Below, one piece after another: positions 6,889-51,601 of a DNA stretch of 57,515 nt. The notes under the pieces were generated by a model. That model was not told the DNA's origin and did no database searches. It saw nothing but the letters and a program-made list of their open reading frames with translations. How positions within the stretch are numbered: position 1 is the stretch's first letter; each line of letters begins with the position of its first letter. A program made the position numbers and the translations under genes. This stretch comes from Gammaproteobacteria bacterium (lineage in GTDB: Bacteria > Pseudomonadota > Gammaproteobacteria > SZUA-229). Location: contig JBFHPZ010000001.1 in assembly GCA_041592495.1 (NCBI GenBank), forward strand, positions 1-57,515. Reading direction: 5' to 3'.

Positions 6889-7668
6889 TTATTTCACCTT
6901 GCGGCGAGTAAGCCCGATGCCAAGCATGCCAAGTCCGAGTAAAGCCAGGATGCTGGGTTCGGGAACCTCATATGCCCCTTCAATAGTATCGTTACCGCAG
7001 GTCATTCCCCAGTGCAGTGCGATCTGATCGCTGGATAACAAGCTGGTTCCAGCAAGGTCAATGACAAAGCGCAAACTGTTGTCGTCGTAATTGCCATAAC
7101 GGCCGTAATCGATAGACCATGTGCCTTGGCTAATAGCGGTCTGGTTTTCTTCTTTAACGGAAATTTCCTGACCATTACGGTAAGTAACGCGAGGCTTGAA
7201 GAAACTGTCACTCATGAGTGCGTTGTCGGCATTGGTTGCACCGTTCAATTGATACAGTGTGCCTGTTCCACCATTTCCCCACTGGTTGTCCAGGGCGAAT
7301 GCATAAGTCCAGAGTGTGCCAGTGACGTTGTCGTCCTGGTAATAAGGAGCGTCACCATAGGGATTCCAGCTGCTGCTCAGGAAAAGATCGCCATATCCAA
7401 TTCCTTTGCCATTCTTAGTAGCCGAAGCGAATTCGCCATCGTCACCTCGGCCTGCAAAGTTGGTGTTGATGTTGACGTGTAAAGAAGTTCCAATCAGTCC
7501 AACATCCATGCTGAAAACCTGGAACTTATAGGTGCTGCCAATGACATCACCGTACCCATGATTTTCTGAGCCGATATAGGTATCGGCAATGGTTTGCATG
7601 CCGGCCTGGGTAGTAAAAGCGGCCGTGGATGCCGCAGCCAGAACAGCTAAAGATAGAATGTGTCGCAT
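6889..7668 (-). CDS. PEP-CTERM sorting-domain protein (predicted exosortase substrate)
   Basis: Signal peptide MRHILSLAVLAAASTAAFTTQA. The C-terminus is VPEPSILALLGLGMLGIGLTRRKVK*, i.e. a PEP motif, a hydrophobic helix and a basic tail. The track start 7677 is a GTG; ATG 7668 has AGGTG 6 nt upstream. Confidence 0.85.
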   Translation of the reverse strand: MRHILSLAVLAAASTAAFTTQAGMQTIADTYIGSENHGYGDVIGSTYKFQVFSMDVGLIGTSLHVNINTNFAGRGDDGEFASATKNGKGIGYGDLFLSSSWNPYGDAPYYQDDNVTGTLWTYAFALDNQWGNGGTGTLYQLNGATNADNALMSDSFFKPRVTYRNGQEISVKEENQTAISQGTWSIDYGRYGNYDDNSLRFVIDLAGTSLLSSDQIALHWGMTCGNDTIEGAYEVPEPSILALLGLGMLGIGLTRRKVK

Positions 7669-7706
7669 TGAATTCACCTAAATTTATGTACAACTTGTAA
7701 GTGTAT

Positions 7707-10104: not shown

Positions 10105-10121
10105 TCACAGGAAGTGAGGAG

Positions 10122-16924: not shown

Positions 16925-17782
16925 ATGCAAATTAGAAATGCGCTTACTGTCGACGTAGAGGACTACTTTCAGGTTTCGGCGTTTGAGAACGCCGTAGATC
17001 GTAAGGATTGGGTAAATCAACCCTTGAGAGTTGAGCGTAATACCCATCTTCTCCTCGATTTATTCGACGAATATAATACAAAAGCTACCTTTTTCGTGCT
17101 TGGTTGGGTGGCTGATCGAATTCCCTCCATTGTGAAAGAGATTGCTGATCGCGGACATGAGATTGCCTGTCATGGGTATAGTCACAGGCTTGTTTATAAT
17201 CAGACCCCGGAGGAATTTCGCGAGGAAACTCTGAAATCAAAAATGGTTCTGGAAGATCTGTCGCAACAGTCCATTTACGGGTATCGCGCAGCAAGTTATT
17301 CGATTACGAATAAGTCCCTTTGGGCACTGGATATACTGGTCGATGCGGGTTTTATTTATGATTCCAGTATATTCCCGGTACGGCATGATCGTTATGGTAT
17401 TCCAGACGCTAACAAATATCCTCATGAACTTAAAACATTGACGGGCAACACCATTGTTGAATTTCCGTTGACCACGGCCCAATGGATGGGTTCGACAGTG
17501 CCAATTGCAGGGGGAGGGTATTTCAGGCTGTTTCCGTATTGGCTTACAAAGGCGGGATTGGGTCAGTCAAACGACAAAAATGAACCTTTCATCTTCTATT
17601 TGCATCCCTGGGAAATAGACGCGGAACAACCGCGCATTGAGGCTTCCTGGTTCTCGAAATTTCGTCATTACAATAATCTCGACAAATGTTATCCCAGACT
17701 GAAATCGTTATTAACGGATTTCAAATTCACGACAACTCGAGATGTTCTTGCTGCAAAAGGCCTGTTATCTGTTAATGATTAA
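16925..17782 (+). CDS. Polysaccharide deacetylase, PEP-CTERM-locus subfamily type
   Basis: N-terminus ALTVDVEDYFQVSAFE, GHEIACHGYSH and a C-terminal DUF3473-like region (FYLHPWEID). This matches the exosortase-A-associated deacetylase pattern. Confidence 0.85.
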   Translation: MQIRNALTVDVEDYFQVSAFENAVDRKDWVNQPLRVERNTHLLLDLFDEYNTKATFFVLGWVADRIPSIVKEIADRGHEIACHGYSHRLVYNQTPEEFREETLKSKMVLEDLSQQSIYGYRAASYSITNKSLWALDILVDAGFIYDSSIFPVRHDRYGIPDANKYPHELKTLTGNTIVEFPLTTAQWMGSTVPIAGGGYFRLFPYWLTKAGLGQSNDKNEPFIFYLHPWEIDAEQPRIEASWFSKFRHYNNLDKCYPRLKSLLTDFKFTTTRDVLAAKGLLSVND

Positions 17783-18827
17783 AGAACGGAAGCGCCTTGG
17801 TCAGGATCCAGAAATTTATTAGTATCTTTTTGAGGGCGGGTGCGTCTTTCCTTATTGCTAGCAGGCTGTAGTTATTATTGACCCTGTTGGTCCAGTTATA
17901 TTTATAGTCTTCCGAGCCTCGTAGTAAATCGAAAGACGAACATCCTTTTTTCTTCGCCATTTCGACAAGCGACCTGAGAAGGAATTGTCCAGCGCCGTAC
18001 TGGGCGTATTTTTCATCATACGTTGGAACGTAATAATAAAAAATATCATCGTCCATGAATCCAAAATGTGCCGCAACAAGTTTGTTATCAATTTTGATGG
18101 TTGACAGAATTGCATGTGAGCCGAAGCTCGAGTCGTCTAGTATGGCGCGATAAAACTTCTGGGTTTTTTGCGCGTCAAATGCCGAATTAGGAAACGAGAG
18201 GCGATGAATGTCCGAGAATTCCGCCATGTCCTGTGCAGATATCTCGCAGCCTTGTTTGTGCTCAAAAACACAATTATCGGCGATTTTTCTAAACCTGCGT
18301 TTGATATTCGATGCCTTTTTGGGTTCTTCATAAATGCGGGAAAATTCAATTACAGGTGTAATTTCCGCCACTGTTTCGCATCCATAAAGCTCCTTGAGAA
18401 GGAAATGTCTAAATAATGATGCGTTGATATTGGCATCCGACAAATTATCGAATTTGTACACATCCCAGCGGCTTTCCTGCTGTTCCATTAAAAATTGGAT
18501 AACACGCTTGATAATTAATCGGCTGTTGGCCGAAGGATCTATAAGGAAGAGTGAATAATCCGTGGCCCTGTCGATGCCATGGCAGATCGCGTGGAAGGTG
18601 AATGCTTTTATCTTGAACGGCTTAATGCTGAATGGAAATGCACCAATCAGAGTTTTATCATCGTTGTAGACGACGACGACAAGCGGCGGTTGCTCGAACG
18701 TCTGGTAATGGAATAACACCCAGCTATGGTGGATGAAGGGCCCCTCGGATGTTTTGTTGTATAAGGAATTCCAGTCGCTCTTTGTTGCAGCGATCTCTTC
18801 GATAGTTGTTAAGAGTTTAATATGCAT
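17772..18827 (-). CDS. FemAB/CelD(BcsL)-like GNAT-fold acyl- or aminoacyl-transferase
   Basis: N-terminus ...WNSLY...PFIHHSWV and C-terminus ...AGQFLLRSLVEMAKKKGCSSFDLLRGSEDYKYNW, which is a CelD-like pattern. Its 3' end overlaps the convergent deacetylase gene by 11 bp. Confidence 0.65.
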   Translation of the reverse strand: MHIKLLTTIEEIAATKSDWNSLYNKTSEGPFIHHSWVLFHYQTFEQPPLVVVVYNDDKTLIGAFPFSIKPFKIKAFTFHAICHGIDRATDYSLFLIDPSANSRLIIKRVIQFLMEQQESRWDVYKFDNLSDANINASLFRHFLLKELYGCETVAEITPVIEFSRIYEEPKKASNIKRRFRKIADNCVFEHKQGCEISAQDMAEFSDIHRLSFPNSAFDAQKTQKFYRAILDDSSFGSHAILSTIKIDNKLVAAHFGFMDDDIFYYYVPTYDEKYAQYGAGQFLLRSLVEMAKKKGCSSFDLLRGSEDYKYNWTNRVNNNYSLLAIRKDAPALKKILINFWILTKALPFFNH

Positions 18828-18839
18828 TTAACGTTTTTT

Positions 18840-19862
18840 TCAGTGATTGGGTTGACGTAGATAATCAATCCAGGAAATTGATTGTATGAATTCTGCCAAT
18901 GAAGAGGGCATGTTTAACCTTGGAACCTGGTACGACGCATATTTGTCAGCGCTGTGGACAGGTTTATAGTGTAAGGTTTTTGTGGACACGGCGAGTGATA
19001 TACCCTCCTGTTGCAGGTTACGCATTTCTCTTTCCGTGAAATCGCCAGGCCTACCGGTCGGGTAGGCAAAGATAGGAGCGGTTGCAGGAATCCTTTCGCG
19101 CGTCAATGCGATGGAAGTCTTAATTTCATACGCGGCATCTTCATCGCTTAGTTGTGAAAGTATTCTATGTGTGCGGCTATGAGCGCCAATGCAATGCCCT
19201 CTGTTCGTGAGGTCTCTCGCCTGATCCCAGCTCATTGGTTGATACTGGCCTGGTGTGGTGTCGGGCTTTTCAACATGGGTTTGTTGATAGAGTGAATCTA
19301 GTGCATTGTATATATTGGTATTGTCCCGTGACTTCAATAATTGATAAAGCTCATATCGACAATGAGTGCGGGAGGCTGGATCTGCCAGCCTTGTACCGAA
19401 TTCAGATCCGGCAATATTCAGTTTATAGTAACCGTCTGGTGCATGATTCAGTAGGTATCGTAACTGGTCATCCCATGGCCATAGCTTGCCATCCAGGAGA
19501 TCCGTAATCAGGAAGTAGGTTAAGGGTATATCAAATTCTTCAAACAATGGCGCAGCCACTTCATATTGATCAATAAAACCATCATCGATAGTGAATACCA
19601 CCGACTTTTTTGGAGGGAGTTGACCGTTGCTGGAATATTGAGCGAGCTGACCCAGGGTTATCGGGTTATATTTGTGTTTGCGTGCATAAGCCAGGCTTCT
19701 TCGAAGCTCATCTGGCTTTTGGCCGGAAATACCCCGATCAGGTGCATTGAAGCGGTGCATGATAAAAATTGGAACAAACGGACCGGTAAATGCCTGTACC
19801 AGCCCGGTAGGTATCAGTGTTGCTGCTGCGGGAATCAATGGCCTTATTATTCGTTTAGGCAT
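18840..19862 (-). CDS. Polysaccharide deacetylase (NodB homology domain)
   Basis: VVFTIDDGFIDQYEVAAPLFEEFDIPLTYFL and GHCIGAHSRTHRIL are NodB motifs. Confidence 0.8.
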   Translation of the reverse strand: MPKRIIRPLIPAAATLIPTGLVQAFTGPFVPIFIMHRFNAPDRGISGQKPDELRRSLAYARKHKYNPITLGQLAQYSSNGQLPPKKSVVFTIDDGFIDQYEVAAPLFEEFDIPLTYFLITDLLDGKLWPWDDQLRYLLNHAPDGYYKLNIAGSEFGTRLADPASRTHCRYELYQLLKSRDNTNIYNALDSLYQQTHVEKPDTTPGQYQPMSWDQARDLTNRGHCIGAHSRTHRILSQLSDEDAAYEIKTSIALTRERIPATAPIFAYPTGRPGDFTEREMRNLQQEGISLAVSTKTLHYKPVHSADKYASYQVPRLNMPSSLAEFIQSISWIDYLRQPNH

Positions 19863-19867
19863 AAAAG

Positions 19868-20887
19868 TTATCTCAAGCCTTTTAGTTTCATTCTAAATAG
19901 CATGGCCGGGCGCAGCATAACAGAAGGAATGCTGGCCAGTAATCTATGTGAGACTGGGACCCCGGATTTCACCAGGGCGATATCTTTTCTTGCTTCCGTG
20001 CTTCGGCCCAGTGCCAGGTATTCCCTGATTCTTAATAGCCGTTCCTTGTCAATTCTGGATTGATAATCCTGCGAGTGTGCTTGAAGAAAGGTTTCATCCT
20101 TGCCCCATTGGTTTTCAAGAACCCTTATCTGTGCGTTATAGCGTTTCAGGCTCGATGCGTCGGTGAGTCTGGGTATCTCGTAATCGTTCTGCCAGGTAGT
20201 GCTGATGTCGAGGTAGCCCACATCGGCAATTCGGGCCAGTTTGGAACTATACTGCCAACTTTCCTGTAAACGCATGCTGGTGTCGAAATAAATCTGATCT
20301 TTGGCGATCTCACGGCGTACTACCATCGTGCTCGGAAGAACGTGATCAATATTCATTTGCGAGCGGTAAATTGAGCCAATATAGACATCAAAATCACTTA
20401 ATGAAGCCGGTAAATCGGCCATTGTCGAAAATTTGAAACTATCGCCAACTATTTTGTGCCAGTCAGTAATTTCGTGCCCCCAGTTGAAAAGGCAATTACG
20501 GGCAATCTTGCCGTTACTATACCTGGTGGAGAAGTTGCTGAATGTATAAACCAGTTCAGGATGGGCCTGCATAATTGCTTTTCGCAAGTATAAATTTTCC
20601 GGGTCCCACTCATCGTCGTCATCCAGAAATGCAATCAGTGAGTTTTGGCTGGCATCTATTCCGGTGTTCCTGGCTGCGGAAGGTCCGGAATTACTGTTCA
20701 TTCGGATGTACTTAATTTTATCCCCGAACTGTTTCAGGACTTGTTCTGTGTTATCCGGCGAGCAATCATCAACTACAATAACTTCGTCACCATTTTCACA
20801 GCAGTTCAATGCGCTTTGCACCGCCCTGGTTACGATATTGGCGCGATTGTAGGTGCAAATAATTGCTGAAACATTACTTGATTTCAT
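19868..20887 (-). CDS. Glycosyltransferase family 2
   Basis: VSAIICTYNRA...VIVVDDCSPDNT...NSGPSAARNTG...AFLDDDDEW. Start taken at ATG 20887 (MKSSNVSA); the track start 20974 is a GTG further upstream. Confidence 0.85.
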   Translation of the reverse strand: MKSSNVSAIICTYNRANIVTRAVQSALNCCENGDEVIVVDDCSPDNTEQVLKQFGDKIKYIRMNSNSGPSAARNTGIDASQNSLIAFLDDDDEWDPENLYLRKAIMQAHPELVYTFSNFSTRYSNGKIARNCLFNWGHEITDWHKIVGDSFKFSTMADLPASLSDFDVYIGSIYRSQMNIDHVLPSTMVVRREIAKDQIYFDTSMRLQESWQYSSKLARIADVGYLDISTTWQNDYEIPRLTDASSLKRYNAQIRVLENQWGKDETFLQAHSQDYQSRIDKERLLRIREYLALGRSTEARKDIALVKSGVPVSHRLLASIPSVMLRPAMLFRMKLKGLR

Positions 20888-21194
20888 TTGACTTGCGTCC
20901 CTGGACGTAACCTGGCCGGATATAAAAATAGAGTGTGAGCCAGGCGAGGCAGCCAAATAGCAGCGTGTACGCACCCAAGATATACAAAATTATTGAATCG
21001 GAATTAAATCCAAAAAATAGGGTTAATGAGGCTCCAGCCAGGGCAATGTACAGGGATGGCCAGAGGATTAGCCAGTTAATATGAATCTTGTATTGCATTA
21101 GCCTGGCAGACCGGCTAAATAACCATACGCCAGTGCCATAGAGTAAAGTCAGAAATGCGGTTTCGGCCAGAAGAAACAGGATTTTCATTAACAT
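20874..21194 (-). CDS. Small integral membrane protein (106 aa, 3-4 TM)
   Basis: Uniformly hydrophobic. Its ATG overlaps the TAA of the upstream GMC gene (TAATG) and its 3' end overlaps the GT2 start, which suggests translational coupling. Confidence 0.5.
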   Translation of the reverse strand: MLMKILFLLAETAFLTLLYGTGVWLFSRSARLMQYKIHINWLILWPSLYIALAGASLTLFFGFNSDSIILYILGAYTLLFGCLAWLTLYFYIRPGYVQGRKSNEIK

Positions 21195-25331: not shown

Positions 25332-26483
25332 TTGGATATTTCACTGCATTTTGGATTATCGGGGCTGCTGGAGCTTCAGCAGTCCTGGCAAACGCTGGAA
25401 AGCAAAATCAATCGGCCGAATCATTCGCATTCGTTTGCCTGGTGGCAGGCTTATCTCGAGGAGCTGGCCAGCCAGCCTGATGAATTCTGCTTCATTTCGG
25501 TGCGGCAGGATGGCGAGACTATTGCGATTTGTCCATTTGTAACGCAGGTGCATAGGCGGTTTGGACTGTTCAGCGCCCGGGTACTGGCCTCTGTGCATGA
25601 CCCTAATTTCCTGTTTCCCGATATCATGGTTGTACCGCAGCACCAGCGGCCGGACTTTCTGCCGGAACTGGCAAAGCGTCTATCCCGTCTATTGAAGTGG
25701 GATATGTTGGTGATTGGCGGGGTCATGGGTGTACTGGAGACTTCGCACGCCGTTGCCTGCCTGCCCAAGCTGTCGCAACCGCGGCTGTTTCGCGAGAATG
25801 AAATCGGCTGTTTTGATGTACCTATGGATGATTACGAGGCTTACCAGCAACGCCTTTCGCGCAAGGATCGGGCTAACCTGCGTCGCACAACCAAGAAAAT
25901 CGAAGCGTATGACGATTGTTTACATCAGTCTGTCATGGAGCCAGAGAAGATACCGCAGGCCCTGCAAACATTTCTGGATGTTGAAGCGGCCGGCTGGAAA
26001 GGCGCGGGTGGCGAGGGTACCGCCATCAAGGTCAATCCGGAGATGACACGCTTTTATGAAAAGCTGGCCGCGGCCTACGCTGCATCCGGCCAATGCCAGG
26101 TCAACCTGTTGTCAGTGGAAGGCAACACCATCGCCGGACAGTTTGCATTCCAGTTGGGCGATACCCTGTACATGAACAAAATCGGGTTTAACCCGGATTA
26201 TTCCGGGCTTAATCCAGGTAACGTGCTCATGGGCAAGCAATTCGAACGTTATTGTGCGGATCCTGGCATTGCCCGCGTCAACCTGATGAGCAGTGCGCAT
26301 CATCTCAAGAAGTGGGCCCCTGACCTGGAACCCAGCTATCGCTACTATTTATGCAACACGACCCTCGCCGGTCTCGCAATTACAGCGTTTTTCCGGCTAA
26401 AACCCTGGTTAAGAAAGGCGAAAGCGCGATTGCATGAGATGAAGAAGAAAGACCCGGCGGCAACGACCGGCGAGGTCTCCTGA
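25332..26483 (+). CDS. FemAB/CelD(BcsL)-like GNAT-fold transferase
   Basis: ...FAWWQAYLE... and LDVEAAGWKGAGGEGTAI...GNTIAGQFAFQLGDTLYMNKIGFNPDYSGLNPGNVLM form a CelD-like pattern. It has a TTG start and no early in-frame ATG. Confidence 0.65.
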   Translation: MDISLHFGLSGLLELQQSWQTLESKINRPNHSHSFAWWQAYLEELASQPDEFCFISVRQDGETIAICPFVTQVHRRFGLFSARVLASVHDPNFLFPDIMVVPQHQRPDFLPELAKRLSRLLKWDMLVIGGVMGVLETSHAVACLPKLSQPRLFRENEIGCFDVPMDDYEAYQQRLSRKDRANLRRTTKKIEAYDDCLHQSVMEPEKIPQALQTFLDVEAAGWKGAGGEGTAIKVNPEMTRFYEKLAAAYAASGQCQVNLLSVEGNTIAGQFAFQLGDTLYMNKIGFNPDYSGLNPGNVLMGKQFERYCADPGIARVNLMSSAHHLKKWAPDLEPSYRYYLCNTTLAGLAITAFFRLKPWLRKAKARLHEMKKKDPAATTGEVS

Positions 26484-26488
26484 TTCCG

Positions 26489-27910
26489 TTAGGGGATGTT
26501 CTTGATAATCGGAGGACCGATGAGTTTGGTTAATGCCACCGGTAGCCGTTTCCAGGTGTTGATCATCAGTGCATATTTTTTATTGGTAGGATTGATCGCT
26601 GGCAAGGCTTCGCCTTCACGCAGCCAGTAATGCCAATAGGACTGTTTCGGTTCGGCTCCCCATTGACGTTTGAAGCGATAGGTGCCGGAATCGATAGAGG
26701 ATCTGCCGAAATCAAATATCTTGAATCCCTGGCTGACAGCATGCTGTAAGACCGACCAGTACAGGAGCATGTTGACGCTCAGATGATTCATATCCTGTCG
26801 GGAGGATGCCCAGGGGATTTCCAGTCTGTCGCGATAACCCATGAGAAAACCTGCTGCTACCGGCTTTCCGTTCAGGCGGACGGACACAATCCAGCAATGT
26901 TCTTCAAATGTTTTCAGGATGGCCTCAAAAAAATAGCGACCATAAACCGGTGTGCCAAGGTCGCGCATATTGCGACTGAAAACGGCATAGAAATCATTCA
27001 GTAGCTCAGCTTTGCCAACCCGGATATCCGGGTTTTCACGTTGTGGTCGCTTGATCTGGGCGCGTAGCTTGGGAGTGAAGCCGTTCCACAGGGCTTCAAT
27101 ACTGTCCGGGAGTTTCAATAACATGTTCACTTTTTCCGAGCGGACAGGCATGCCTTCGCGCGGAATATCGTCCCGGTACTCAATGTGCGAAACGCCCAGG
27201 GTGGTAGCGTACTGATTCGCCTGGTTAATCAACAGTTGTTCGATTTCCGGGTGATCGGCGATAGCGCCGCCGTAATTAAAATAAGGCATGGAAACCAGGA
27301 AATCGCCAAACAGGCGGCTATTGAGCCTTATCAAAGGCAATACGCCAAGGACGTTGTTTTCCGGGCCACGTGCCTGCAGGTAGTGGGCCGTGTGACCAAA
27401 TGTGGTTTTGACAAGATCGCGCCAGGCGGAAAGGTGATAAATACTGCTATGCGAATTCTGGGCTACATAGGTATCCCAGGCCTGGGTGTCTTCGCTCAAG
27501 GTATCAATCGTGATTTCCTGAGGTCTAATTTGGGCGAGCCGGTAGCGAGGAATTGCTTTTTCCTGCTGGCTCTTTGTTGACTCAGTGTCGTTCGCAAAAA
27601 ATTCCAGTAGCTGTTCTTCCCGCGACTTCTGGGTGCTTGCGAGCTGTTTTAACTGTTCAGATAACGTCTTCACCTTTGCCTTGAGAGGCTCAATGGGTTC
27701 ACCCGCGGCCTTGGCCTGACCGATCTGTCTGGACAAGCCTTTTCTGTCATCGTCCAGCGACTTTATATTGTCATTCAGGGAGTTCAGCTCGGTGGAGATT
27801 TGCTCGATTTCGGTGAGGGAGGCGCTATCGGGCGAGGGATTTCTTTCACGGTAGGCGGCAACGGGATCGGCAAGCAAGATCTTGCGTTCAGCTTTGGAGA
27901 AACCACTCAT
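26489..27910 (-). CDS. FemAB-related protein (PEP-CTERM-system-associated type) with an N-terminal seryl-tRNA-synthetase-arm-like coiled coil
   Basis: Residues from about 130 to 473 (IYHLSAWRDL...LPLIRLNSRLFGDFLVSMPYFNYGG...EIPWASS...FDFGRSS...YRFKRQWGAEP) fit the FemAB-related family. Residues from about 30 to 110 include LSRQIGQAKAAGEPIEPLKAKVKTLSEQLKQL, which resembles the SerRS N-terminal arm. Confidence 0.8.
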   Translation of the reverse strand: MSGFSKAERKILLADPVAAYRERNPSPDSASLTEIEQISTELNSLNDNIKSLDDDRKGLSRQIGQAKAAGEPIEPLKAKVKTLSEQLKQLASTQKSREEQLLEFFANDTESTKSQQEKAIPRYRLAQIRPQEITIDTLSEDTQAWDTYVAQNSHSSIYHLSAWRDLVKTTFGHTAHYLQARGPENNVLGVLPLIRLNSRLFGDFLVSMPYFNYGGAIADHPEIEQLLINQANQYATTLGVSHIEYRDDIPREGMPVRSEKVNMLLKLPDSIEALWNGFTPKLRAQIKRPQRENPDIRVGKAELLNDFYAVFSRNMRDLGTPVYGRYFFEAILKTFEEHCWIVSVRLNGKPVAAGFLMGYRDRLEIPWASSRQDMNHLSVNMLLYWSVLQHAVSQGFKIFDFGRSSIDSGTYRFKRQWGAEPKQSYWHYWLREGEALPAINPTNKKYALMINTWKRLPVALTKLIGPPIIKNIP

Positions 27911-27925
27911 GTAGCGATCAAATCC

Positions 27926-28960
27926 TTAAATCCATCCTGAAAGTCGGGCGAGAAATGCCGTTTTGTCTGAGGCTATATCGTTATGAACCCCGATTCGCTT
28001 TAACAGGTGTGCGTCAGAGGTTGCGTTGTTCCAGCCGGATTCGGTAGTGACGGCTGTACGGTAGAGGGATTTCACCAGGGACAGGGCTTCTGGCGAGTAA
28101 TCGCCGTTCGGAAAGCAAAAGGCCGAAACCGGTCGCTCGATGCTCTGTTCGATATGGGTTTTACAGTCACCTATCTCATGCCTCAGCACGTCAGCGGCAA
28201 GCCCGCTATTCAGGCGAATGTGATTGCAGGTATGACTGCCGAATTCAATCAGCCCCGATGCCTGCATTTCCTGTACTTGTTGCCAGTTGAGTAATGCCGC
28301 CGACGTGGTGGCGTTATTCAGGCCAAGTAATTTCTCAATCTGGTCCAGGCGGATATGGATGTCGTCGTCATTAAGGCTTTTGGCGGTGGCTATAAGCTGA
28401 CTAAGTTGCTCCCGGCTGGGTGCCTTGCTACCGAAGTTAAAACTGGTGTCCGCGCGGGTTAACCATTCCAGATCGGGTGAAGACCAGAGCTCGGGTTTTT
28501 CACTCGAAATCTGCGTGGCAATACGAGCCAGCCGTTCAGGCCAGAATTCACGTTGAGTGTTGATCATTTCCGACACCAGGAAAATGGTGGCTGGAATCTC
28601 GCGTTTTTTTAGTATGGGGTAAGCAAACTCGTAATTATCCGCCCAGCCGTCATCGAAGGTGATGGCGCAGGCCTTGGCCGGCAGTTTCTCGCCATTTTCC
28701 CGCGCCTTGATCCACTCCGCGAGCGAAACAACGTCAAAAAGCCTTTCAATCTCCCGCAGGTTGCTTTCCAGCGTTGCCGGGGTGACGACCATGCCAGGTT
28801 CTTCCTGTAGGTAGCGTGGATCGTTTTCCGGTAACACGCGGTGATACATCAATATGACGAGCGCGGGACTGGAAGGAGTGCGCTTGTGTGGGCCGAAATT
28901 AGCCGCGGCATATTGAACGCCGCGCTTGATCAGCTGTTTGATTGAGTGACTGACAGACAT
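27926..28960 (-). CDS. Polysaccharide deacetylase (NodB homology domain)
   Basis: CAITFDDGWADNYEFAYPILKKREIPATIFLV and EFGSHTCNHIRL. Start taken at ATG 28960 (MSVSHSIKQL). Confidence 0.8.
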   Translation of the reverse strand: MSVSHSIKQLIKRGVQYAAANFGPHKRTPSSPALVILMYHRVLPENDPRYLQEEPGMVVTPATLESNLREIERLFDVVSLAEWIKARENGEKLPAKACAITFDDGWADNYEFAYPILKKREIPATIFLVSEMINTQREFWPERLARIATQISSEKPELWSSPDLEWLTRADTSFNFGSKAPSREQLSQLIATAKSLNDDDIHIRLDQIEKLLGLNNATTSAALLNWQQVQEMQASGLIEFGSHTCNHIRLNSGLAADVLRHEIGDCKTHIEQSIERPVSAFCFPNGDYSPEALSLVKSLYRTAVTTESGWNNATSDAHLLKRIGVHNDIASDKTAFLARLSGWI

Positions 28961-29037
28961 TCGGGAAATGATGATTTCGCAGGTTTCGGGTATCGTATAA
29001 ACTATTGTCCATCCGATAGCGAAAAACAACAAGTCCT

Positions 29038-30144
29038 GTGAAAACCATTCTTCATGTCATAGATACCACGGGTCCCGGTGGTGCGGAAACAGTCTTCATT
29101 GATCTGCTCAGTGGTCTGGATAAGTCGCGATACCGCTCGCTGGTTCTGATCCGCGGACCTGGTTGGGTTTGCGATGAACTGAAGCGACGCGGCTTCGAGC
29201 CGATCATTCTTGATGCCAAGGGGTCGTTTAACTGGCGCTATCTGCTCGCGATCGTGAAGCTTATCCGTTCCGAAAAGGTTGATCTCATCCAGTCGCATTT
29301 ACTCGGGTCCAACGTATATTGCGCACTGGCTGGTTTGATAGCGCGCTGTCCGGTGGTTGCGACCTTTCATGGCGCGGTGGATATTGCCTCAAAAGAACGA
29401 TTCATGGGGGCAAAATTTGCAGCAATTAACCTTGGCGCCAGCGCGATTATTGCTGTATCCGAGAATCTTAAACGGGATATCGTCGAGAGGACACCGCTAA
29501 GGGCGAGCAAAACACGCGTAATTTATAACGGGGTTGATATCGAGGCTTTCCAGTTGCCACGGTCATCCGAGCTTCGTCAGCAGCATGGGTTACCCGACGA
29601 TTGCGTGATTATTGGTTCCCTGGGGAATATTCGTCCCGCCAAGGGCTATGATGTGCTGATCCGGGCTGCGGCACGAATCAAGGATACCCGGCCCGAGGTA
29701 CGGTTCGTGATTGCCGGGCAGGGGAGAAAGGGTTTGTCCGAACAACTGGAAGCGCTGCGCAGGGAACTGGGCGTTGAGGAGCAGGTGATATTTCATGGAT
29801 TCGCGGGCGATCCGGCGGCATTCCTGGCCAATCTGGATCTGTTCCTGTTGCCGTCGACTTCAGAGGGATTCTCCATTGCGACCATTCAGGCCATGGCGGC
29901 TGGCTTGCCGGTGATTGTCACCCGTAGCGGAGGCCCCCAGGAAATTGTCACGCACAACGACGACGGCTGGATGGTAGAACCGGGCAGACCGGACGAAATT
30001 GCCGATGCGGTTGCGCGACTGGTTTCTGATCCGCCGCTGCGCCAGCGATTGGCGGATCAGGGTAGAACACGTGTGGAGTCGACCTTCAGCCTGGCAGCCA
30101 TGCTCCAGGCCTACTACAGTCTCTACGAGACGTTATTGGCCTAG
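29038..30144 (+). CDS. Glycosyltransferase family 4 (GT-B)
   Basis: ILHVIDTTGPGGAETVFIDL at the N-terminus and C-terminal LLPSTSEGFSIATIQAMAAGLPVIVTRSGGPQEIV (E-x7-E region). GTG start. Confidence 0.85.
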   Translation: MKTILHVIDTTGPGGAETVFIDLLSGLDKSRYRSLVLIRGPGWVCDELKRRGFEPIILDAKGSFNWRYLLAIVKLIRSEKVDLIQSHLLGSNVYCALAGLIARCPVVATFHGAVDIASKERFMGAKFAAINLGASAIIAVSENLKRDIVERTPLRASKTRVIYNGVDIEAFQLPRSSELRQQHGLPDDCVIIGSLGNIRPAKGYDVLIRAAARIKDTRPEVRFVIAGQGRKGLSEQLEALRRELGVEEQVIFHGFAGDPAAFLANLDLFLLPSTSEGFSIATIQAMAAGLPVIVTRSGGPQEIVTHNDDGWMVEPGRPDEIADAVARLVSDPPLRQRLADQGRTRVESTFSLAAMLQAYYSLYETLLA

Positions 30145-31313
30145 TTGCGCAGGTCCCGCAGATATTTCTTTAATTCGTACCAGAATGGACCCAGGTCATC
30201 CCAGCGATTGACCTCGTGCCGGGTGGTAAAGAATGAAGGCGTTAGAAAGGTCGTCAGCTGCTTCAGTTTGACAGGCCAGCCAGTGCGCCTGTCCTTGAAA
30301 CTGATATATAGGCTATCCAGATCACCCAGTAGCCATCGCAGTCTTCGGCCTAGTCGGTAGTTCATCTGGGGTTGAGGATGTGCGCCGTCAAGCAGCTGAT
30401 AGAGTAAATAAGGAAAATCCACTCCTGAATCAATGGCGAGCTGGAGCGAACCCCAGAAGCGGGTATTAATTTCCATCAGGTAGGGCGTGCCGTCATTGCC
30501 GACTTTGAATTCCACCATGGCGACGCCGTGCCACTTAACTTCATCCAGCAGCGATCTGGCGGCTGCCAGCAGTTTTTCGTCCAGCGGACAACTTTCGGAG
30601 AGGACACTGACGCCCCCCCAGGGTGGTTTTTCCCGCAGTCGTCGATGGGAAAAGAATGCCAGCGGTTTGCCATGATCATACAGGGCAAATATTCCCTGGC
30701 CTGTTCCGGTAACACATTCCTGAAACAGGAAGCGTTCATACTGAAATCCGGGATCGGTTTCCAGGTAATGTCTGACTTCGTCGGCACTGGCAGCTATTCT
30801 CACACTGCTTCGGAACCAGCCGGATGGGGCAGGCTGCCAGGACCTGCCGGGCTTCATGACCAGGGGGTACGGCAACGAATCCAGATCAAGGGAGAGATTC
30901 CGCGGATCATCGATGTACCAGGTTCTGGGTATTACTACATCCAACCCAGTGGCCAGCTGCATGAGATTGTATTTGTCGGCAACGCTGTTAACGGTTGTTG
31001 CAGCTGCAAATGGAAGCAAGACGCCGCTGAGTCGTTCCTTGTGCTCAAGGAGTAGTTGAGTTGTTAACTCCGTCATTGGGAGCAGGATATCGATCTTCTG
31101 TTCGGTACAGATTGTCGCGATACTGTCGATGAAGTCTGCAGGAGACTCGGTAGGCGAACCATATTGTCGATATGCCTGAGGGTAACGGGAATTGCCGGCC
31201 AGGGCCTCGGATGTGGTATCCGCCGTAATAAGAGGGACGCCCTGCCTGCCGAGGGAACGGGTAACCGCAAGCGCGCTGCGCTGGTTGGCATCGAGGATCA
31301 GGACTTTTTTCAT
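30141..31313 (-). CDS. ATP-grasp family carboxylate-amine ligase-like enzyme
   Basis: MKKVLILDANQRSALAVTRSLGRQG, PLVMKPGRSW and HGVAMVEFKVGNDGTPYLMEINTRFWGSLQL are ATP-grasp signatures. Confidence 0.8.
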   Translation of the reverse strand: MKKVLILDANQRSALAVTRSLGRQGVPLITADTTSEALAGNSRYPQAYRQYGSPTESPADFIDSIATICTEQKIDILLPMTELTTQLLLEHKERLSGVLLPFAAATTVNSVADKYNLMQLATGLDVVIPRTWYIDDPRNLSLDLDSLPYPLVMKPGRSWQPAPSGWFRSSVRIAASADEVRHYLETDPGFQYERFLFQECVTGTGQGIFALYDHGKPLAFFSHRRLREKPPWGGVSVLSESCPLDEKLLAAARSLLDEVKWHGVAMVEFKVGNDGTPYLMEINTRFWGSLQLAIDSGVDFPYLLYQLLDGAHPQPQMNYRLGRRLRWLLGDLDSLYISFKDRRTGWPVKLKQLTTFLTPSFFTTRHEVNRWDDLGPFWYELKKYLRDLRN

Positions 31314-32064: not shown

Positions 32065-33258
32065 ATGAAAATACTTATGGTGTGGGATGGTGATTATCCT
32101 TGGGACGTGCGAGTTGAAAAAGTATGCACTTCATTTCTAGAAAATGGCGATGCTGTATCGTTGCTAAGTAGAAATTCTAAAGGACTTCCTCTCCGAGAGA
32201 ACATTCAGGGGTTATCTGTTAGAAGAGTGTTTGGATTTCAAAAAAGATTAAAAAGTCTAAATAAAATTTTGTCATTCCCCTTTTTTCTGTCACCAGTCTG
32301 GTTGTGGGGGATATATAAAAGTATTAAAGAAACACAGCCTGATTTAATCATCATTCGAGATTTGCCGATGGCTTTAGGGGTTTTGGCTATTTCTAAGCCA
32401 ATGAATATACCTACGGTATTAGATATGGCTGAATGTTATCCAGAAATGCTCAGATGCATCTGGAAATTTGAAAAGTTTCGCTGGCAGAATATTTTTGTAA
32501 GAAACCCTAAATTGGCTGATATTGTTGAGAAAGTAACAGTCCGTAATGTAGATATGAATTGGGTTATGGTTGAGGAGTCAGCGCGACGTCTTGTTAGAAT
32601 GGGAGTTGATTTAACGCGGATTACTATTGTTAGTAATACACCAAAAATCAAGGATGAGAGTGGTGTAGAGCATCAAAAAAGAAATGAAGACGCCATTTTA
32701 ACGAATATTTCTTACATAGGGCTAATAAACCCATCTCGTGGGCTTGCTACTGTGCTAGAAGCGGCCGTGCTTCTAAAAAAAGATCAAATTCCAGTGCATT
32801 TTACAATTGTAGGCTCAGGTAAACAGCTTGACGAACTGAAAAAGTTTGTTGAAGAAAATGATCTGAATTCCATAGTGAGTTTGCTTGGATGGATTGATCG
32901 AGATAAGGCAGAGGCTGTGATTGAGAAAGCTGATATTGGTATTGTTCCACATTACAAATGTTCGCATTGGGATAATACCATACCGAATAAGCTTTTTGAT
33001 TATATGAATCTGGGTGTTCCCGTTCTTTCTTCAGATACAATTCCTGTAGAGCGTATTATTTCTGAAACGCAGTGTGGCCTTATATACCGAGATACTGATC
33101 CTGCTGACCTGGCGGAAAAAGTTAAAGAGTTACTTGATGTAAGGAAGAGGGCCTGGCTTGGCAGTAATGGTAAGAAGGCTATTGCTGATAAATACAATTG
33201 GCAAATAGATAGTAAATTACTTGTTGAGTCCGCACTCGGTTTGCTTAAACAGAGATAG
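32065..33258 (+). CDS. Glycosyltransferase family 4 (GT-B)
   Basis: MKILMVWDGDYPWDVRVEKV at the N-terminus. The C-terminus has typical GT-B architecture, including IPNKLFDYMNLGVPVLSSD. Confidence 0.75.
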   Translation: MKILMVWDGDYPWDVRVEKVCTSFLENGDAVSLLSRNSKGLPLRENIQGLSVRRVFGFQKRLKSLNKILSFPFFLSPVWLWGIYKSIKETQPDLIIIRDLPMALGVLAISKPMNIPTVLDMAECYPEMLRCIWKFEKFRWQNIFVRNPKLADIVEKVTVRNVDMNWVMVEESARRLVRMGVDLTRITIVSNTPKIKDESGVEHQKRNEDAILTNISYIGLINPSRGLATVLEAAVLLKKDQIPVHFTIVGSGKQLDELKKFVEENDLNSIVSLLGWIDRDKAEAVIEKADIGIVPHYKCSHWDNTIPNKLFDYMNLGVPVLSSDTIPVERIISETQCGLIYRDTDPADLAEKVKELLDVRKRAWLGSNGKKAIADKYNWQIDSKLLVESALGLLKQR

Positions 33259-33268
33259 AGTTCTTTAT

Positions 33269-34594
33269 ATGCATCGCCTGCTATCTAAATATTTACTATA
33301 TTATCCAGTCACGCTCTTGAAGGGGGAGTTAGTAGCGGCATATATGCCATTTTATAATAATTTCCAAAACAAAACAGCAGATGAAATTCAGGCGTATCAA
33401 TTAAAAAGTTTTAAACGCATTGTTGAGTATGCTTTTAAGAATAATCAATTTTATAAACAGCATTACGGGTCTGGGTTTTCGTTGGCGGATATCCGCTCAC
33501 TTGACGATTTAAAACAAATACCAACAATAACAAAGAATGATTTGATCGGAAGTATCAGTGAGCTTTCAAGCACAAAGAATTTGTTCTCTTCCTCAAAAAC
33601 AACGGGCGGTTCAACTGGGCAGCCTGTACGATTATATAAATCTCCTGATGCTTTAGCTCGTGAAAGAGCGGCTACTTGGCGAGCATATCAATGGGCGGGA
33701 ATTGAAATTGGAGATGCACAAGCAAGATTTTGGGGTGTGCCTCACTCTCAATCAGGAAGATTTAAGGCGCGAATTGCGGATTTTGCTGCAAACAGACTCA
33801 GGATGTCGGCTTTCCAGATAACAGGTGAAAACCTTTCCAAATACTATAAGGATATACACAGATTTGGCCCGGCATACTTATATGGTTATGTTAGTGCGAT
33901 TGATGAATTGGCTAAATTTGTAATTAGTGAAAATCTATCTCCATTCCCATCCCTGAAGTCTGTAATAACTACATCAGAGGTATTAACTGATACCGCCAGG
34001 AGCCGAATTTGCAATGCTTTTGGTGTCAAGGTTTATAATGAATATGGGTGTGGTGAAGTGGGTTCGATTGCTCATGAATGTGAACATGGCTCAATGCATC
34101 AGATGGCAGATAACTTAATTGTTGAGGTCGATTCTCCACCAGGTGAGCCAGGTGAAATCATAGTTACAGATCTGTTCAATAAGGCTACACCACTCATAAG
34201 GTACCGACTAGGGGATTATGCGACCTTTGATAACTCAAAGTGCTTATGTGGTAGATCGCTACCCGTGATATCAGCAATACATGGGAGAGCTTATGATTTG
34301 ATTAGGACGATCTCGGGGAAAATGATACATCCTGAATCTTTGATTTATGTTGTTGAGGGGCTACAACAAGAAACAATGGCTTTTAGGCAGTTCCAGGCGG
34401 TTCAGGAAACTTTATCTAAAATAACTATATCTATAGTCCCATCTGAAAAATTCTCGGACAGCGTTGTTAACAGATTAATCGCATTGTTGAAAAATGATGT
34501 TGATTCAAGTATTGATTATGAAATTCAACTTTGTAATGAAATTCAACGGGAAAGCTCGGGTAAGATGAGGCTTGTGAAGGGATTGAAAAACTAG
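33269..34594 (+). CDS. Phenylacetate-CoA ligase-like / CapK-type adenylate-forming enzyme
   Basis: IPTITKNDL, the AMP motif SSKTTGGSTGQPV, and YNEYGCGEVG...GRAYD. Start at ATG 33269 (MHRLLSKY). Confidence 0.75.
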   Translation: MHRLLSKYLLYYPVTLLKGELVAAYMPFYNNFQNKTADEIQAYQLKSFKRIVEYAFKNNQFYKQHYGSGFSLADIRSLDDLKQIPTITKNDLIGSISELSSTKNLFSSSKTTGGSTGQPVRLYKSPDALARERAATWRAYQWAGIEIGDAQARFWGVPHSQSGRFKARIADFAANRLRMSAFQITGENLSKYYKDIHRFGPAYLYGYVSAIDELAKFVISENLSPFPSLKSVITTSEVLTDTARSRICNAFGVKVYNEYGCGEVGSIAHECEHGSMHQMADNLIVEVDSPPGEPGEIIVTDLFNKATPLIRYRLGDYATFDNSKCLCGRSLPVISAIHGRAYDLIRTISGKMIHPESLIYVVEGLQQETMAFRQFQAVQETLSKITISIVPSEKFSDSVVNRLIALLKNDVDSSIDYEIQLCNEIQRESSGKMRLVKGLKN

Positions 34595-40279: not shown

Positions 40280-41791
40280 TCATTTGCTATTCCTGACATA
40301 ATCGTTAATAAAATCTAATGCGGATTTTTCTAGAAAATCCTTATCCAGGTTTCCCCCTTTATCTGATATGCATTCTTCAGAATTGCAACGATAGGTGACG
40401 ACTATTAATTCAGCAGATGAATTCGCTCGTAGCCCCTCAATGAATTGATAAAACTTTCCCTTAAATGGAGAAATCGTGAAATGGTTACCTATTTTGTAGG
40501 TCCAGGCAACCAGGTAGGATTGGTATCCTTTTTTTACACCGACAATAGATATCTGGCGTTCATTGTCTATAGTTAAATTTTGAATTTCAGTAAGGTCATC
40601 CTCTTCAGCAATCTTGTTGCTATAGTAAATCATCTCTTTTCCCTGTTTTTGTACATAGTAACTATATACGGCGGCATTAAGCCGATCATTATTTTTATTT
40701 TCCAAATACAGAGCGTTATCCCAATTAGAATAATCAATTTCGACTTGAGGTTCGGAAATTTGATGCCATTTAAAGAAAGTGAAATTATTCGAATGTGAAC
40801 CTTTTTCACTTGCATTATCAACGGAAACTATGGAATTCCCTGCTGTTAGAAAAATGCTTGATACTATAATTGGCGCAAATGAAACTTTGATAAAGCTTGA
40901 AGGTTTTACAAAGTCGGATTTGGTTTCATCAGCATGAATGCGTTTTTCCAGAGGTTCTGGAAAAAATCTATCTAAATACTTGTGTAAAGAAGGGAGCGTG
41001 AAAAAGTATATTGTTAAAACTACTGCAAAGATTATCCACCCAAATGTGCCGTGCTCATAAACAATCGAGCTTTGCATTTTAGAATAATATCCGATTAATA
41101 CTAGAGAATACACGCGAACCCAATTCGCAATTATTGCTAGCAATAATGCCAATCCAGTGTACACAACACCTTTCATAAAAGATCGTGTATTTTGCGCGGC
41201 GCTTAGTATGCCGATTACTAACCCCATCATGAAATAATTCATCCCTGCGCAGCTACCGGCCACCTTGAGTGTCCCATATGGGAGTTCGATCAGGAATCCT
41301 TGTACATGTGCGGGAATTTGAAGCCAAGTTAACCAGATTTGTACAACATGAACTGTCGCTTCACGCAAAATCGGCTGAAAGACATCCCATGCTGGCATCG
41401 CGATATAAAGGCATAAAATTGGAAGATAGAAAGAGGGGGCTGATTTTAAACCATATAGAGCTAATAGCAGGCTTGTGAATATCAATGGCAATGCTAATTG
41501 CTCAATAATCAGCATTTGGGTTGAATGGCCGAAATACCAGATTAAGCTTACCAATATGGCAATAGGGACAATCCAGTAATTGGGTTGTATTTTCGTCTTT
41601 TCAGACAATACATTCTTAATGATCCAGTACAATGAAATCGCAAGAATGAAGTATCCATGCGAATAACTCTGATCCCATTTAATCCATTTTTCATGTAATG
41701 ACGCAATGGTTTGAGAAAAGCTAAAATAAAGGACGATACAGGATAAACCTATCCAGGTTATGGATAACAATGCATGATTAGAAATGCGCAA
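40280..41791 (-). CDS. xrtA: Exosortase (XrtA-like) fused to a C-terminal EpsI-family domain
   Basis: Polytopic membrane N-half with exosortase motifs GSCAGMNYF (Cys181), ANWVRVY (Arg226) and EHGTFGW (His247). About 200 aa of soluble C-terminal domain follows. TTG start with AAGGG 7 nt upstream and no early in-frame ATG. The subtype is inferred from locus context only. Confidence 0.8.
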   Translation of the reverse strand: MRISNHALLSITWIGLSCIVLYFSFSQTIASLHEKWIKWDQSYSHGYFILAISLYWIIKNVLSEKTKIQPNYWIVPIAILVSLIWYFGHSTQMLIIEQLALPLIFTSLLLALYGLKSAPSFYLPILCLYIAMPAWDVFQPILREATVHVVQIWLTWLQIPAHVQGFLIELPYGTLKVAGSCAGMNYFMMGLVIGILSAAQNTRSFMKGVVYTGLALLLAIIANWVRVYSLVLIGYYSKMQSSIVYEHGTFGWIIFAVVLTIYFFTLPSLHKYLDRFFPEPLEKRIHADETKSDFVKPSSFIKVSFAPIIVSSIFLTAGNSIVSVDNASEKGSHSNNFTFFKWHQISEPQVEIDYSNWDNALYLENKNNDRLNAAVYSYYVQKQGKEMIYYSNKIAEEDDLTEIQNLTIDNERQISIVGVKKGYQSYLVAWTYKIGNHFTISPFKGKFYQFIEGLRANSSAELIVVTYRCNSEECISDKGGNLDKDFLEKSALDFINDYVRNSK

Positions 41792-50821: not shown

Positions 50822-51601
50822 ATGGAATTGATTGACACAATCTGCCATTTGGATGTGCCGGAATTTGCTGATGATTTGCAGGCGGTACTGGATGACGCCC
50901 GGTTACATGGAGTAACGCGTTTTATCCTGGCGGGTATTTCTTCGGATGGCTGGCCTCGGATGAGCAAGTTGGCTTCCAGGCATTCCGATATTCATCCCGC
51001 TTATGGTATTCACCCTCAGTTTATTGCCGGTTCGGTTGATAATGAACTGGTGCGATTAAATGCTTACCTTGAAGGACACCAGGCCGTCGCAGTGGGTGAA
51101 ATTGGCCTGGATTATTTCGAGAAATCGGCAGATAAACAACGCCAGCAACAACTCTTCGAGGGCCAGCTCAAAATCGCCGCGCACCATGATTTGCCGGTTA
51201 TTCTTCATGTCAGGAAAGCACATGAAGATGTATTGCGTAGTTTGAAAACAGCACATATTAAGGGTGGCACCGCGCACGCCTTTAATGGTTCCTATCAGCA
51301 GGCAACCCGTTACATTGACCTGGGATTCAAGCTGGGCTTTGGTGGTATGCTCACCCATGAACGTTCACGGAAACTGCGTGAGCTGGCGGTCAAATTGCCC
51401 CTTGATGCCATCGTTCTTGAAAGCGATGCGCCGGACATGGCTGTTGCTAGCCATCGGGGAGAACGTAACAGTCCGGCATACCTGATAGAAGTTGCAACAG
51501 TGCTGGCGGAAATCAAGGGTTGTTCGGTAGAAGAGGTTGCCCGGCTGACGACCGAGAATGCATGTAATGTATTCAATCTGCAGCCTGATCGAATGAGGTA
51601 A
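50822..51601 (+). CDS. TatD-family metal-dependent hydrolase
   Basis: IDTICHLD, GEIGLDYF, PVILHVR, GTAHAF and LESDAP form the TatD/YjjV-type motif series. Confidence 0.85.
   Translation: MELIDTICHLDVPEFADDLQAVLDDARLHGVTRFILAGISSDGWPRMSKLASRHSDIHPAYGIHPQFIAGSVDNELVRLNAYLEGHQAVAVGEIGLDYFEKSADKQRQQQLFEGQLKIAAHHDLPVILHVRKAHEDVLRSLKTAHIKGGTAHAFNGSYQQATRYIDLGFKLGFGGMLTHERSRKLRELAVKLPLDAIVLESDAPDMAVASHRGERNSPAYLIEVATVLAEIKGCSVEEVARLTTENACNVFNLQPDRMR

Follow-up and report, generated by a model that had tools for sequence, protein, structure and literature searches.

A Fem-type transferase fused to a homologue of the seryl-tRNA synthetase tRNA-binding domain in an XrtA/PEP-CTERM exopolysaccharide locus

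FemX of Weissella viridescens (FemX(Wv), structures 1ne9 and 4ii9) has a double-GNAT fold of ~330 residues, with aminoacyl-tRNA (aa-tRNA) as its donor and UDP-MurNAc-pentapeptide (peptidoglycan) as its acceptor. Lys305 is the sole reactive residue in its active site, and the equivalent lysine is essential in DhpH-C (PMC12945691). Here, we describe a gene for a 473-residue protein, arm-Fem, in a 57,515-nucleotide stretch of DNA from a gammaproteobacterium (the window; assembly GCA_041592495.1, contig JBFHPZ010000001.1). Arm-Fem is predicted to share the FemX(Wv) fold at ~14% identity, and its F413-K414 corresponds to Phe304-Lys305. Unlike arm-Fem, FemX(Wv) does not carry an arm of the type found in seryl-tRNA synthetase (SerRS).

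Helical hairpins and synthetase-derived parts have been described on related enzymes. Staphylococcus aureus FemA, FemB and FemX and Streptococcus pneumoniae MurM are Fem transferases with a long antiparallel helical hairpin, and the structures of FemA (1lrz) and FemX (6snr) match the arm-Fem fold. The FemA hairpin was reportedly likened in structure to the SerRS arm by Benson et al. in 2002. In these enzymes the hairpin interrupts GNAT domain 2 and is not reported to share sequence homology with SerRS, whereas the arm of arm-Fem is N-terminal, sits on a flexible linker and scores above the Pfam threshold for the SerRS N-terminal domain. Hairpin and arm seem to have met one and the same need independently. 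MprF-like transferases are fused to a lysyl-tRNA synthetase (LysRS) paralogue, and VlmA is coupled to the SerRS paralogue VlmL (PMC2922099). These systems share the theme of a Fem/MprF-type GNAT transferase coupled physically or genetically to a synthetase-derived part, but they recruit a whole synthetase to make the charged tRNA, and arm-Fem only the tRNA-binding domain. In the mycothiol pathway, a GlcNAc derivative is de-N-acetylated and an amino acid is then amide-linked to it by a synthetase-derived enzyme (MshB/MshC). MshC is an ATP-dependent paralogue of cysteinyl-tRNA synthetase which uses no tRNA and has a fold unrelated to Fem. The closest chemical precedent for arm-Fem is found in the streptothricin-type pathways, where the Fem-fold enzymes Orf11, Sba18 and Sbb17 acylate an amino-sugar amine in an aa-tRNA-dependent manner. 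Orf11 transfers Gly from Gly-tRNA onto the amino sugar of streptothrisamine, giving glycylthricin (PMC12945691). These actinomycete enzymes differ in having a small-molecule antibiotic as acceptor, Gly-tRNA as donor and no arm.

Both parts of arm-Fem are of familiar types, synthetase modules on Fem/MprF enzymes have been seen before, and the architecture is visible in automated Pfam annotation. Our literature search, for which most subscription journals were out of reach, surfaced no mention of the arm-Fem fusion or of tRNA use in PEP-CTERM loci; the earlier note, made from the window sequence by itself, likewise knew of no description. The founding PEP-CTERM paper names the deacetylase family of these loci, and neither Fem nor tRNA.

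The two domains of arm-Fem

The gene and its parts, with helices from AlphaFold2 (AF2) models and confidence as predicted local distance difference test scores (pLDDT), are:

26489..27910, minus strand: the whole arm-Fem fusion gene, 473 amino acids (translation of the open reading frame (ORF), TIGR03019, Pfam Acetyltransf_6, Seryl_tRNA_N and FemAB)
27842..27895, minus strand: two short N-terminal helices, residues 6-23, with the motif K-x-I-L-x-D-P-V (AF2 secondary structure)
27704..27826, minus strand: arm helix 1, residues 29-69, ending in S60-R61-x-I63-G64-x-A66-K67 (AF2 helix, pLDDT >90)
27692..27703, minus strand: hairpin tip, residues 70-73, G-E-P-I, matching SerRS 'GEDI' (gap between the two AF2 helices)
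27593..27691, minus strand: arm helix 2 (residues 74-106), running antiparallel to the first (AF2 helix, translation checked)
27512..27592, minus strand: flexible linker, residues 107-133, variable in sequence (low pLDDT and alignment, translation checked)
26492..27511, minus strand: FemX-like double-GNAT catalytic domain, residues 134-473 (Foldseek and family profile A3)
26669..26674, minus strand: F413-K414, the counterpart of FemX(Wv) Phe304 and Lys305 (HMMER alignment, translation FK)

The N-terminal segment was compared with SerRS at the level of sequence. The Pfam family Seryl_tRNA_N (PF02403) matched residues 22-104 over profile positions 20-100 of 108 with 38.3 bits, above the gathering threshold of 28.2 (E=1.7e-9), and generic coiled-coil Pfam families gave 10-17 bits, all far under their own cut-offs. 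A phmmer search of the PDB with the arm returned SerRS chains as the top three matches (E = 1e-4 to 5e-4). It aligned residues 48-90 (SRQIGQAKAAGEPIEPL) with residues 43-85 of E. coli SerRS, whose arm sequence the earlier note had given correctly, and the arm block aligned with the SerRS motif S-K-S-I-G-Q-A-K. A profile built from 32 family arms (A2) and run against the PDB found nine distinct SerRS structures, all collinear, at E=3.7e-8 to 9e-3, followed by the first other protein at E=0.036. These SerRS are from Klebsiella, E. coli, Pseudomonas, S. aureus, Pyrococcus, Aquifex and Thermus, together with one engineered enzyme. Profile positions 27-105 aligned on SerRS residues ~22-103, and for T. 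thermophilus SerRS (1ser) positions 10-101 aligned on residues 5-94. Seryl_tRNA_N was matched individually by 29 of 38 sampled full-length family members (E<=1e-3), and no other coiled-coil family recurred. When only the arm was searched by phmmer against 1.84 billion representatives, just 13 matches reached E<=1e-3, mostly N-terminal fragments and one repetitive coiled-coil protein of 1015 residues.

The predicted structure points the same way. An arm-only AF2 model has pLDDT >90 over residues 11-100, and Foldseek with this model placed SerRS at ranks 1-13 (root-mean-square deviation ~3.7 Å, ~98 columns, 26% identity). Sequence profiles and predicted fold together support the proposal of the earlier note that this segment is truly homologous to the tRNA-binding domain of SerRS and not a generic coiled coil. 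The peptide it had quoted, DDRKGLSRQIGQAKAAGEPIEPLKAKVKTLSEQLKQLAS, is present as residues 54-92 of the 473-residue product of 26489..27910, and the IGQAKAAGEP peptide is encoded at 27695-27724, one base from the 27694-27723 given there.

The likeness extends beyond the hairpin. AF2 predicts short helices at residues 6-14 and 16-23, and the K-x-I-L-x-D-P-V motif (residues 10-17) is the counterpart of the first helix in the N-terminal domain of SerRS. Divergent family members also resemble the SerRS N-terminus, for example MDIRKILDDPATAIAARWG in locus L016. The alignment of arm-Fem with PF02403 runs collinear through the first helix and both helices of the arm, the tip S-(K/R)-x-I-G-x-A-K-x-x-G-E is shared, and the same two-helix arm is predicted. 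By alignment, the entire SerRS N-terminal domain was acquired, first helix and arm, and not the coiled coil alone. The class II catalytic core of SerRS is absent by sequence: the serS model TIGR00414 gave 18.5 bits (cut-off 301.65), aligned on residues 30-103 only, and the remainder of the protein is the Fem domain.

Residues 143-473 of arm-Fem span all of TIGR03019, the curated model of the FemAB family associated with the XrtA/PEP-CTERM system (positions 1-330 of 330; 374.8 bits, cut-off 260.35, NCBIfam search), which covers the Fem domain only, leaving an extension of 142 residues. The full-length AF2 model has a mean pLDDT of 89.7. Linker residues 108-120 have pLDDT <50, and the length and composition of the linker vary across the family alignment. 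The catalytic domain of ~330 residues is of FemX(Wv) size and has no long internal hairpin in its AF2 secondary structure. Pfam FemAB matched with 33.4 bits (cut-off 24), and the predicted fold is the double-GNAT one of FemABX enzymes, with a substrate cleft between its two domains. The best Foldseek match was FemX(Wv) (1xe4 at E=1.8e-16 and TM(target) 0.73; FemX(Wv) structures 0.71-0.73), followed in order by Sba18/Sbb17, S. aureus FemA (1lrz, E=1e-13) and FemX, and then MprF/A-PGS. Sba18 and Sbb17 are aa-tRNA-dependent peptide synthases whose structures were solved in the presence of streptothrisamine, an amino-sugar substrate. A profile (A3) was built from 28 Fem domains of genes with and without an arm; in the PDB it matched only FemX(Wv) (E=5e-9), S. 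aureus FemX (6snr) and Sbb17/Sba18. HMMER aligned the family motif TYRFKK with FemX LYVFKH (302-306), and F413-K414 is invariant in alignments A1 and A3. Sequence and model thus support a Fem-type, aa-tRNA-transferase-like catalytic domain that retains the catalytic Phe-Lys pair, in agreement with the fusion described in the earlier note. The fold, the motif and the fused tRNA-binding domain would make aa-tRNA the acyl donor.

The arm could in principle be an annotation artefact, with the real start codon downstream of it, and spurious long upstream open frames do exist in the high-GC loci L031, L072 and L079. For arm-Fem such a mis-called start is excluded, because its N-terminus is conserved and the 473-residue product was called independently by gene callers on three assemblies. 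The motif at residues 10-17 and the whole arm are kept in homologues of ~50% identity with aligned starts, as the fusion itself is conserved in orthologues. Residues 1-207 hold no further Met, and the ATG lies 15 nt past the stop codon of the upstream gene and is preceded by AAGGA. The stop codon of arm-Fem is at 26489-26491. A scan for promoters and terminators around the gene gave counts no better than in shuffled sequence.

Conservation and distribution of the arm

Family arms are only 20-32% identical overall, yet the S-R-x-I-G-x-A-K-x-x-G tip is conserved, and no part of the arm is better conserved than this elbow-facing tip. I63 and G64 are invariant, and S60, R61, P16, L76, M80 and F105 are at least 90% conserved. 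In the 38 sampled sequences, G70 is found in 32 and P72 in 26, and in the N-terminal motif K10 is kept in 32, I12 and L13 in 34 each, and P16 in 37. Judged from the conserved tip and the occurrence in coherent clades, the arm is under selection.

The tip has decayed in some lineages: L030 (Thiotrichaceae UBA4486), L035, L069 and L077 have LSRAFRDSS, IASKFKLFK, CSKSFKEAK or no motif in its place. The helical hairpin is still present in them, as is, in some, the SerRS-like N-terminal helix. These sequences suggest that the constraint on the tip is relaxed or altered in some clades.

The best 120 database homologues of arm-Fem are all 447-527 residues long, with ~50% identity and alignments over 89-100% of the query. 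A precomputed PF02403 match is attached to most of them, and the sole names given to them are 'FemAB family XrtA/PEP-CTERM system-associated protein' and 'serine/alanine adding enzyme'. Taking one genome per GTDB species, relatives are encoded in at least 591 loci. We re-examined the presence of the arm at the ORF level in the best 80 species-level loci. A hidden Markov model (HMM) of the arm found it in 43 of the 80, one locus (L030) has a degenerate hairpin, and ~30 are truly armless, with only 9-60 codons of open frame ahead of the Fem domain. Because this sample is biased towards the query, the overall arm-bearing fraction is lower. N-terminal extensions in L031, L048, L059, L072 and L079 were rejected as arms, being spurious open frames in high-GC DNA. 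The match of L080 to query residues 24-473 was also rejected, since it joins a separate upstream deacetylase gene and an armless Fem of 341 residues.

Two forms of the arm are seen. The long form, an extension of 140-150 residues which includes the N-terminal helices, is found in the clade of the window and in Granulosicoccaceae. The short form of ~105 residues is essentially the hairpin and tip, and is carried by Marinobacter algicola DG893, M. lipolyticus, M. maroccanus, Oleiphilaceae, Hydrogenophaga and Acidovorax. In a neighbour-joining tree of Fem domains the arm-bearing proteins fall into two coherent groups and the armless ones into a separate cluster. Thus, the arm is a clade-level trait with few gains or losses. 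The armless TIGR03019 proteins share the catalytic domain (49-57% identity), the locus type and the upstream deacetylase with arm-Fem, but have only 9-60 residues ahead of the Fem domain.

The locus and the link to a deacetylase

The window is a complete XrtA/PEP-CTERM exopolysaccharide (EPS) locus, with PrsK, PrsR, PrsT, TIGR03007, TIGR03018, TIGR03006, TIGR03027 and TIGR03013. It encodes a chain-length determinant, a tyrosine autokinase, an export protein, the TIGR03013 priming transferase, an O-antigen-ligase-like protein and several GT2 and GT4 glycosyltransferases. The neighbours discussed here are:

27926..29032, minus strand: CE4 polysaccharide deacetylase, directly upstream of arm-Fem (Pfam Polysacc_deac_1, E=5.5e-24)
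16925..17782, plus strand: TIGR03006 XrtA-system polysaccharide deacetylase (NCBIfam, 401 bits, cut-off 276)
40280..41791, minus strand: XrtA-like exosortase, 503 amino acids (TIGR03109 185 bits, cut-off 208; TIGR02602 122 bits, cut-off 105.6)
6889..7677, minus strand: protein with the canonical PEP-CTERM tail VPEPSILALLGLGMLGIGLTRRKVK (regular-expression scan of all window ORF C-termini)

The CE4 deacetylase gene is probably co-transcribed with arm-Fem. Its listed TTG start lies only 5 nt from the divergent GT4 gene at 29038 and other gene callers give 288 residues; the true start is probably internal, downstream of the TTG, for example the Met of MSVSHSIKQL. The same order of deacetylase and arm-Fem is found in L004, L006-L011 and L016, the clade of the window. 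In Marinobacter-type and armless loci a TIGR03006 deacetylase occupies the place upstream of the Fem gene, and in other genomes this deacetylase is what usually stands upstream of TIGR03019 genes. Most of the best 80 loci, like the window, have a deacetylase gene immediately upstream of the Fem gene.

The two enzymes also occur as one protein. In L032, a single ORF of 680 residues (8966-11008, plus strand) joins a TIGR03006-type deacetylase to an armless TIGR03019 Fem domain. At least nine distinct fusions of this kind were found (P0121-P0129, 625-695 residues, down to 38% identity) in diverse lineages including the isolate Geomonas sp. Red276. On the evidence of these sequences, the recurrent fusion is a Rosetta-stone link between the deacetylase and the Fem enzyme. 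The XrtA-system deacetylase (PF01522 and PF11959) is often fused as well to a GT2 (ExoA-like), a GT4 or a Bac_transf priming phosphotransferase (P0165-P0236), which implies that it acts on early, lipid-linked cytoplasmic intermediates. In our own reading of the sequences, these Fem and deacetylase proteins have no obvious signal peptide, so their chemistry would be cytoplasmic, where charged tRNA is available.

The ORF at 6889-7677 lies just upstream of the PrsK/PrsR/PrsT regulators, and from its tail its product is a likely substrate of the exosortase. The exosortase itself scored 156 bits over its full length against XrtW, and its sequence may represent an XrtA variant with a C-terminal extension.

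The window holds a second module of like composition (17772-20974, minus strand) with a GT2 (19868-20974), a deacetylase (18840-19862) and a 351-residue Acetyltransf_6 protein (17772-18827) that has Tyr-Lys at the site of the Fem Phe-Lys. Another Acetyltransf_6 protein, of 383 residues (25332-26483, plus strand), is tail-to-tail with arm-Fem. The earlier note had taken these two proteins as paralogues and arm-Fem as 110-130 residues longer at its N-terminus. The extension is there, the differences in length being 122 and 90 residues. We rejected the two proteins as close paralogues, as BLASTP gave E=0.003 and a non-significant match and only Acetyltransf_6 is shared. The locus also encodes an ATP-grasp enzyme (30141-31313, minus strand), whose gene stays close to that of arm-Fem in many of the related loci, together with a PaaK/F390-like, AMP-dependent ligase (33221-34594, plus strand). 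These are further candidate amide-bond formers, and the EPS may bear more than one acyl or aminoacyl decoration. Outside the EPS locus, at the edge of the window, are an ArsJ-type organoarsenical efflux transporter (52289-53509, plus strand, 597 bits) and a TatD-family hydrolase (50822-51601).

A proposed reaction and its alternatives

We build on the homology of both domains, the conservation of the fusion, the retention of the catalytic Phe-Lys pair and the deacetylase linkage, all of them features of the sequences. From these we infer that the arm binds tRNA, which tRNA and amino acid are used, and what the acceptor is. We propose, and consider rather probable, that arm-Fem uses aa-tRNA in the cytoplasm to N-aminoacylate an EPS sugar that has lost its N-acetyl group, and that the arm acts as an extra clamp on the tRNA. 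The CE4 deacetylase would expose the amine of an N-acetyl-hexosamine on the lipid-linked EPS repeat unit. The Fem domain would then move the aminoacyl group from aa-tRNA to this amine, by a FemX-type substrate-assisted mechanism around K414, and would so yield an N-aminoacyl-hexosamine. The SerRS-derived domain, made up of the first 107 residues, would be tethered to the catalytic domain by the ~27-residue disordered linker. In this arrangement the arm would hold the donor tRNA by its elbow and on the side of the variable arm as the acceptor end reaches into the active site of the Fem domain, and this second tRNA contact would raise affinity or selectivity. The EPS-locus context and the deacetylase linkage argue for an acceptor other than a peptidoglycan precursor.

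What the arm may still bind can be judged against SerRS, whose arm touches the D and T loops as well as the variable arm and reads the shape of the tRNA, not specific bases (PMC4666401). In human SerRS the helix-1 contacts to the long variable arm are the invariant N58 and the essential D51, and S61 approaches U20 (PMC4666401). We related human and E. coli SerRS residues by motif pattern, with no computed alignment, and counted residues in the 38 sequences. The counterpart of human S61 is S60, and 35 of them have Ser there. The remaining contacts count against the proposal, as do several other observations. Human N58 (E. coli N52) corresponds to family position 57, which is R in 13, K in 12, Q in 8, G in 4 and S in 1, with no Asn, whereas the aligned bacterial SerRS structures retain 'RN' at the matching place. 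Human D51 corresponds to position 50, with K in 18, R in 8, Q in 6 and no Asp. Thus, unlike in SerRS, the invariant Asn and the conserved acidic residue of helix 1 are replaced. In net charge the arm is close to neutral (-2 for arm-Fem itself, +3 as the family mean). The arm sits on a disordered linker, whereas the SerRS arm acts in trans across the dimer on a rigid hinge. Its Foldseek E-values are weak, from 5e-3 at best to 0.1, modest values that are expected because the query is a 100-residue hairpin. About half of the closest orthologues are armless, and six-frame ORFs searched with the arm HMM gave no stand-alone arm near armless Fem genes; the arm is therefore accessory and dispensable for the chemistry. 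A search of the window and of 42 arm-bearing loci for a dedicated tRNA gene gave none. Because the tip is kept, the variable-arm contacts are replaced and the short Marinobacter arms hold little beyond the tip, binding to the elbow is probably retained by the arm sequences and variable-arm specificity is uncertain. The earlier note had proposed selection of a class II tRNA; in the family the tip and elbow-facing motif S-R-x-I-G-x-A-K is conserved, and the helix-1 contacts to the variable arm are not.

The same observations would suit an arm that has lost tRNA binding and serves as a coiled coil, for dimerisation or for docking on the membrane EPS machinery (the chain-length determinant or the tyrosine kinase). 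Replacement of the key variable-arm contacts, near-neutral charge, the fast divergence of the arms, the degenerate tips in L030, L035, L069 and L077, and orthologues that function without an arm are all in its favour. However, what is conserved goes beyond heptad hydrophobics, namely the SerRS-specific tip and the N-terminal K-x-IL-x-DP helix, the replaced positions are now Arg, Lys or Gln and fit for contact with an RNA backbone, and a tRNA-binding fusion is functionally sensible on a Fem-type host domain whose substrate is tRNA. We regard the coiled-coil role as unlikely. A change of acceptor with tRNA dependence kept is slightly less likely again: the amino acid could go to a protein N-terminus or side chain, compare leucyl/phenylalanyl-transferase, possibly of PEP-CTERM proteins, or to a lipid, compare MprF. 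MprF/A-PGS lipid aminoacylases are among the Fem-fold relatives and a PEP-CTERM protein and exosortase are encoded in the locus, but the tight CE4 deacetylase linkage in most loci and the recurrent fusion, the fusions of the deacetylase family to glycosyltransferases and a priming transferase, and the lack of an MprF-type transmembrane domain in arm-Fem speak for a sugar. Also unlikely, in our view, is an acyl-CoA-dependent GNAT enzyme that re-acylates the de-acetylated sugar with another acyl group, leaving the arm vestigial or regulatory. The strongest Pfam match is indeed to the broad GNAT family Acetyltransf_6, a neighbouring Acetyltransf_6 protein is weakly like the crotonyl-transferase BspF, and tandem-GNAT acetyltransferases appear lower down the Foldseek list. 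Yet the top matches, by fold and by sequence profile, are all to aa-tRNA-dependent enzymes, the FemX Phe-Lys pair is invariant, the FemAB threshold is passed, and such an enzyme would make the fused SerRS domain hard to account for.

Returning to tRNA-dependent aminoacylation of an EPS sugar, we tentatively name Ser-tRNA(Ser) as the leading donor candidate, and arm-Fem may select a tRNA whose variable arm is long. Since only the tRNA-binding domain has been recruited, charging would be by the housekeeping synthetase. A more speculative extension, which we hold to be improbable, concerns the fate of the product. A single aminoacyl stub (Ser or other) on the EPS hexosamine could present its alpha-amine as the nucleophile that receives PEP-CTERM proteins from XrtA. 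The stub would then be a Gram-negative counterpart of the Fem-built cross-bridges that serve as sortase acceptors.

The fusion of a Fem-type enzyme to a domain whose sole known job is to hold tRNA(Ser) or tRNA(Sec) is strong circumstantial evidence that these EPS loci use charged tRNA. Together, the arm and the deacetylase-Fem fusions give a concrete two-step reaction, de-N-acetylation of a sugar followed by its N-aminoacylation. They also offer a natural experiment in how Fem-type enzymes gain tRNA affinity, with a true SerRS N-terminal domain here and an inserted hairpin in staphylococcal FemA/B. Some arm carriers are in culture, among them Marinobacter algicola DG893 and M. lipolyticus SM19, making the hypothesis directly testable, and arm-Fem is relevant to research on both aa-tRNA transferases and exosortases. 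If the aminoacyl stub were the exosortase acceptor, the attachment point of exosortase substrates would be identified and a main question of the PEP-CTERM system answered. Were the stub made of Ser, translation-grade Ser-tRNA would be a building block of the biofilm matrix.

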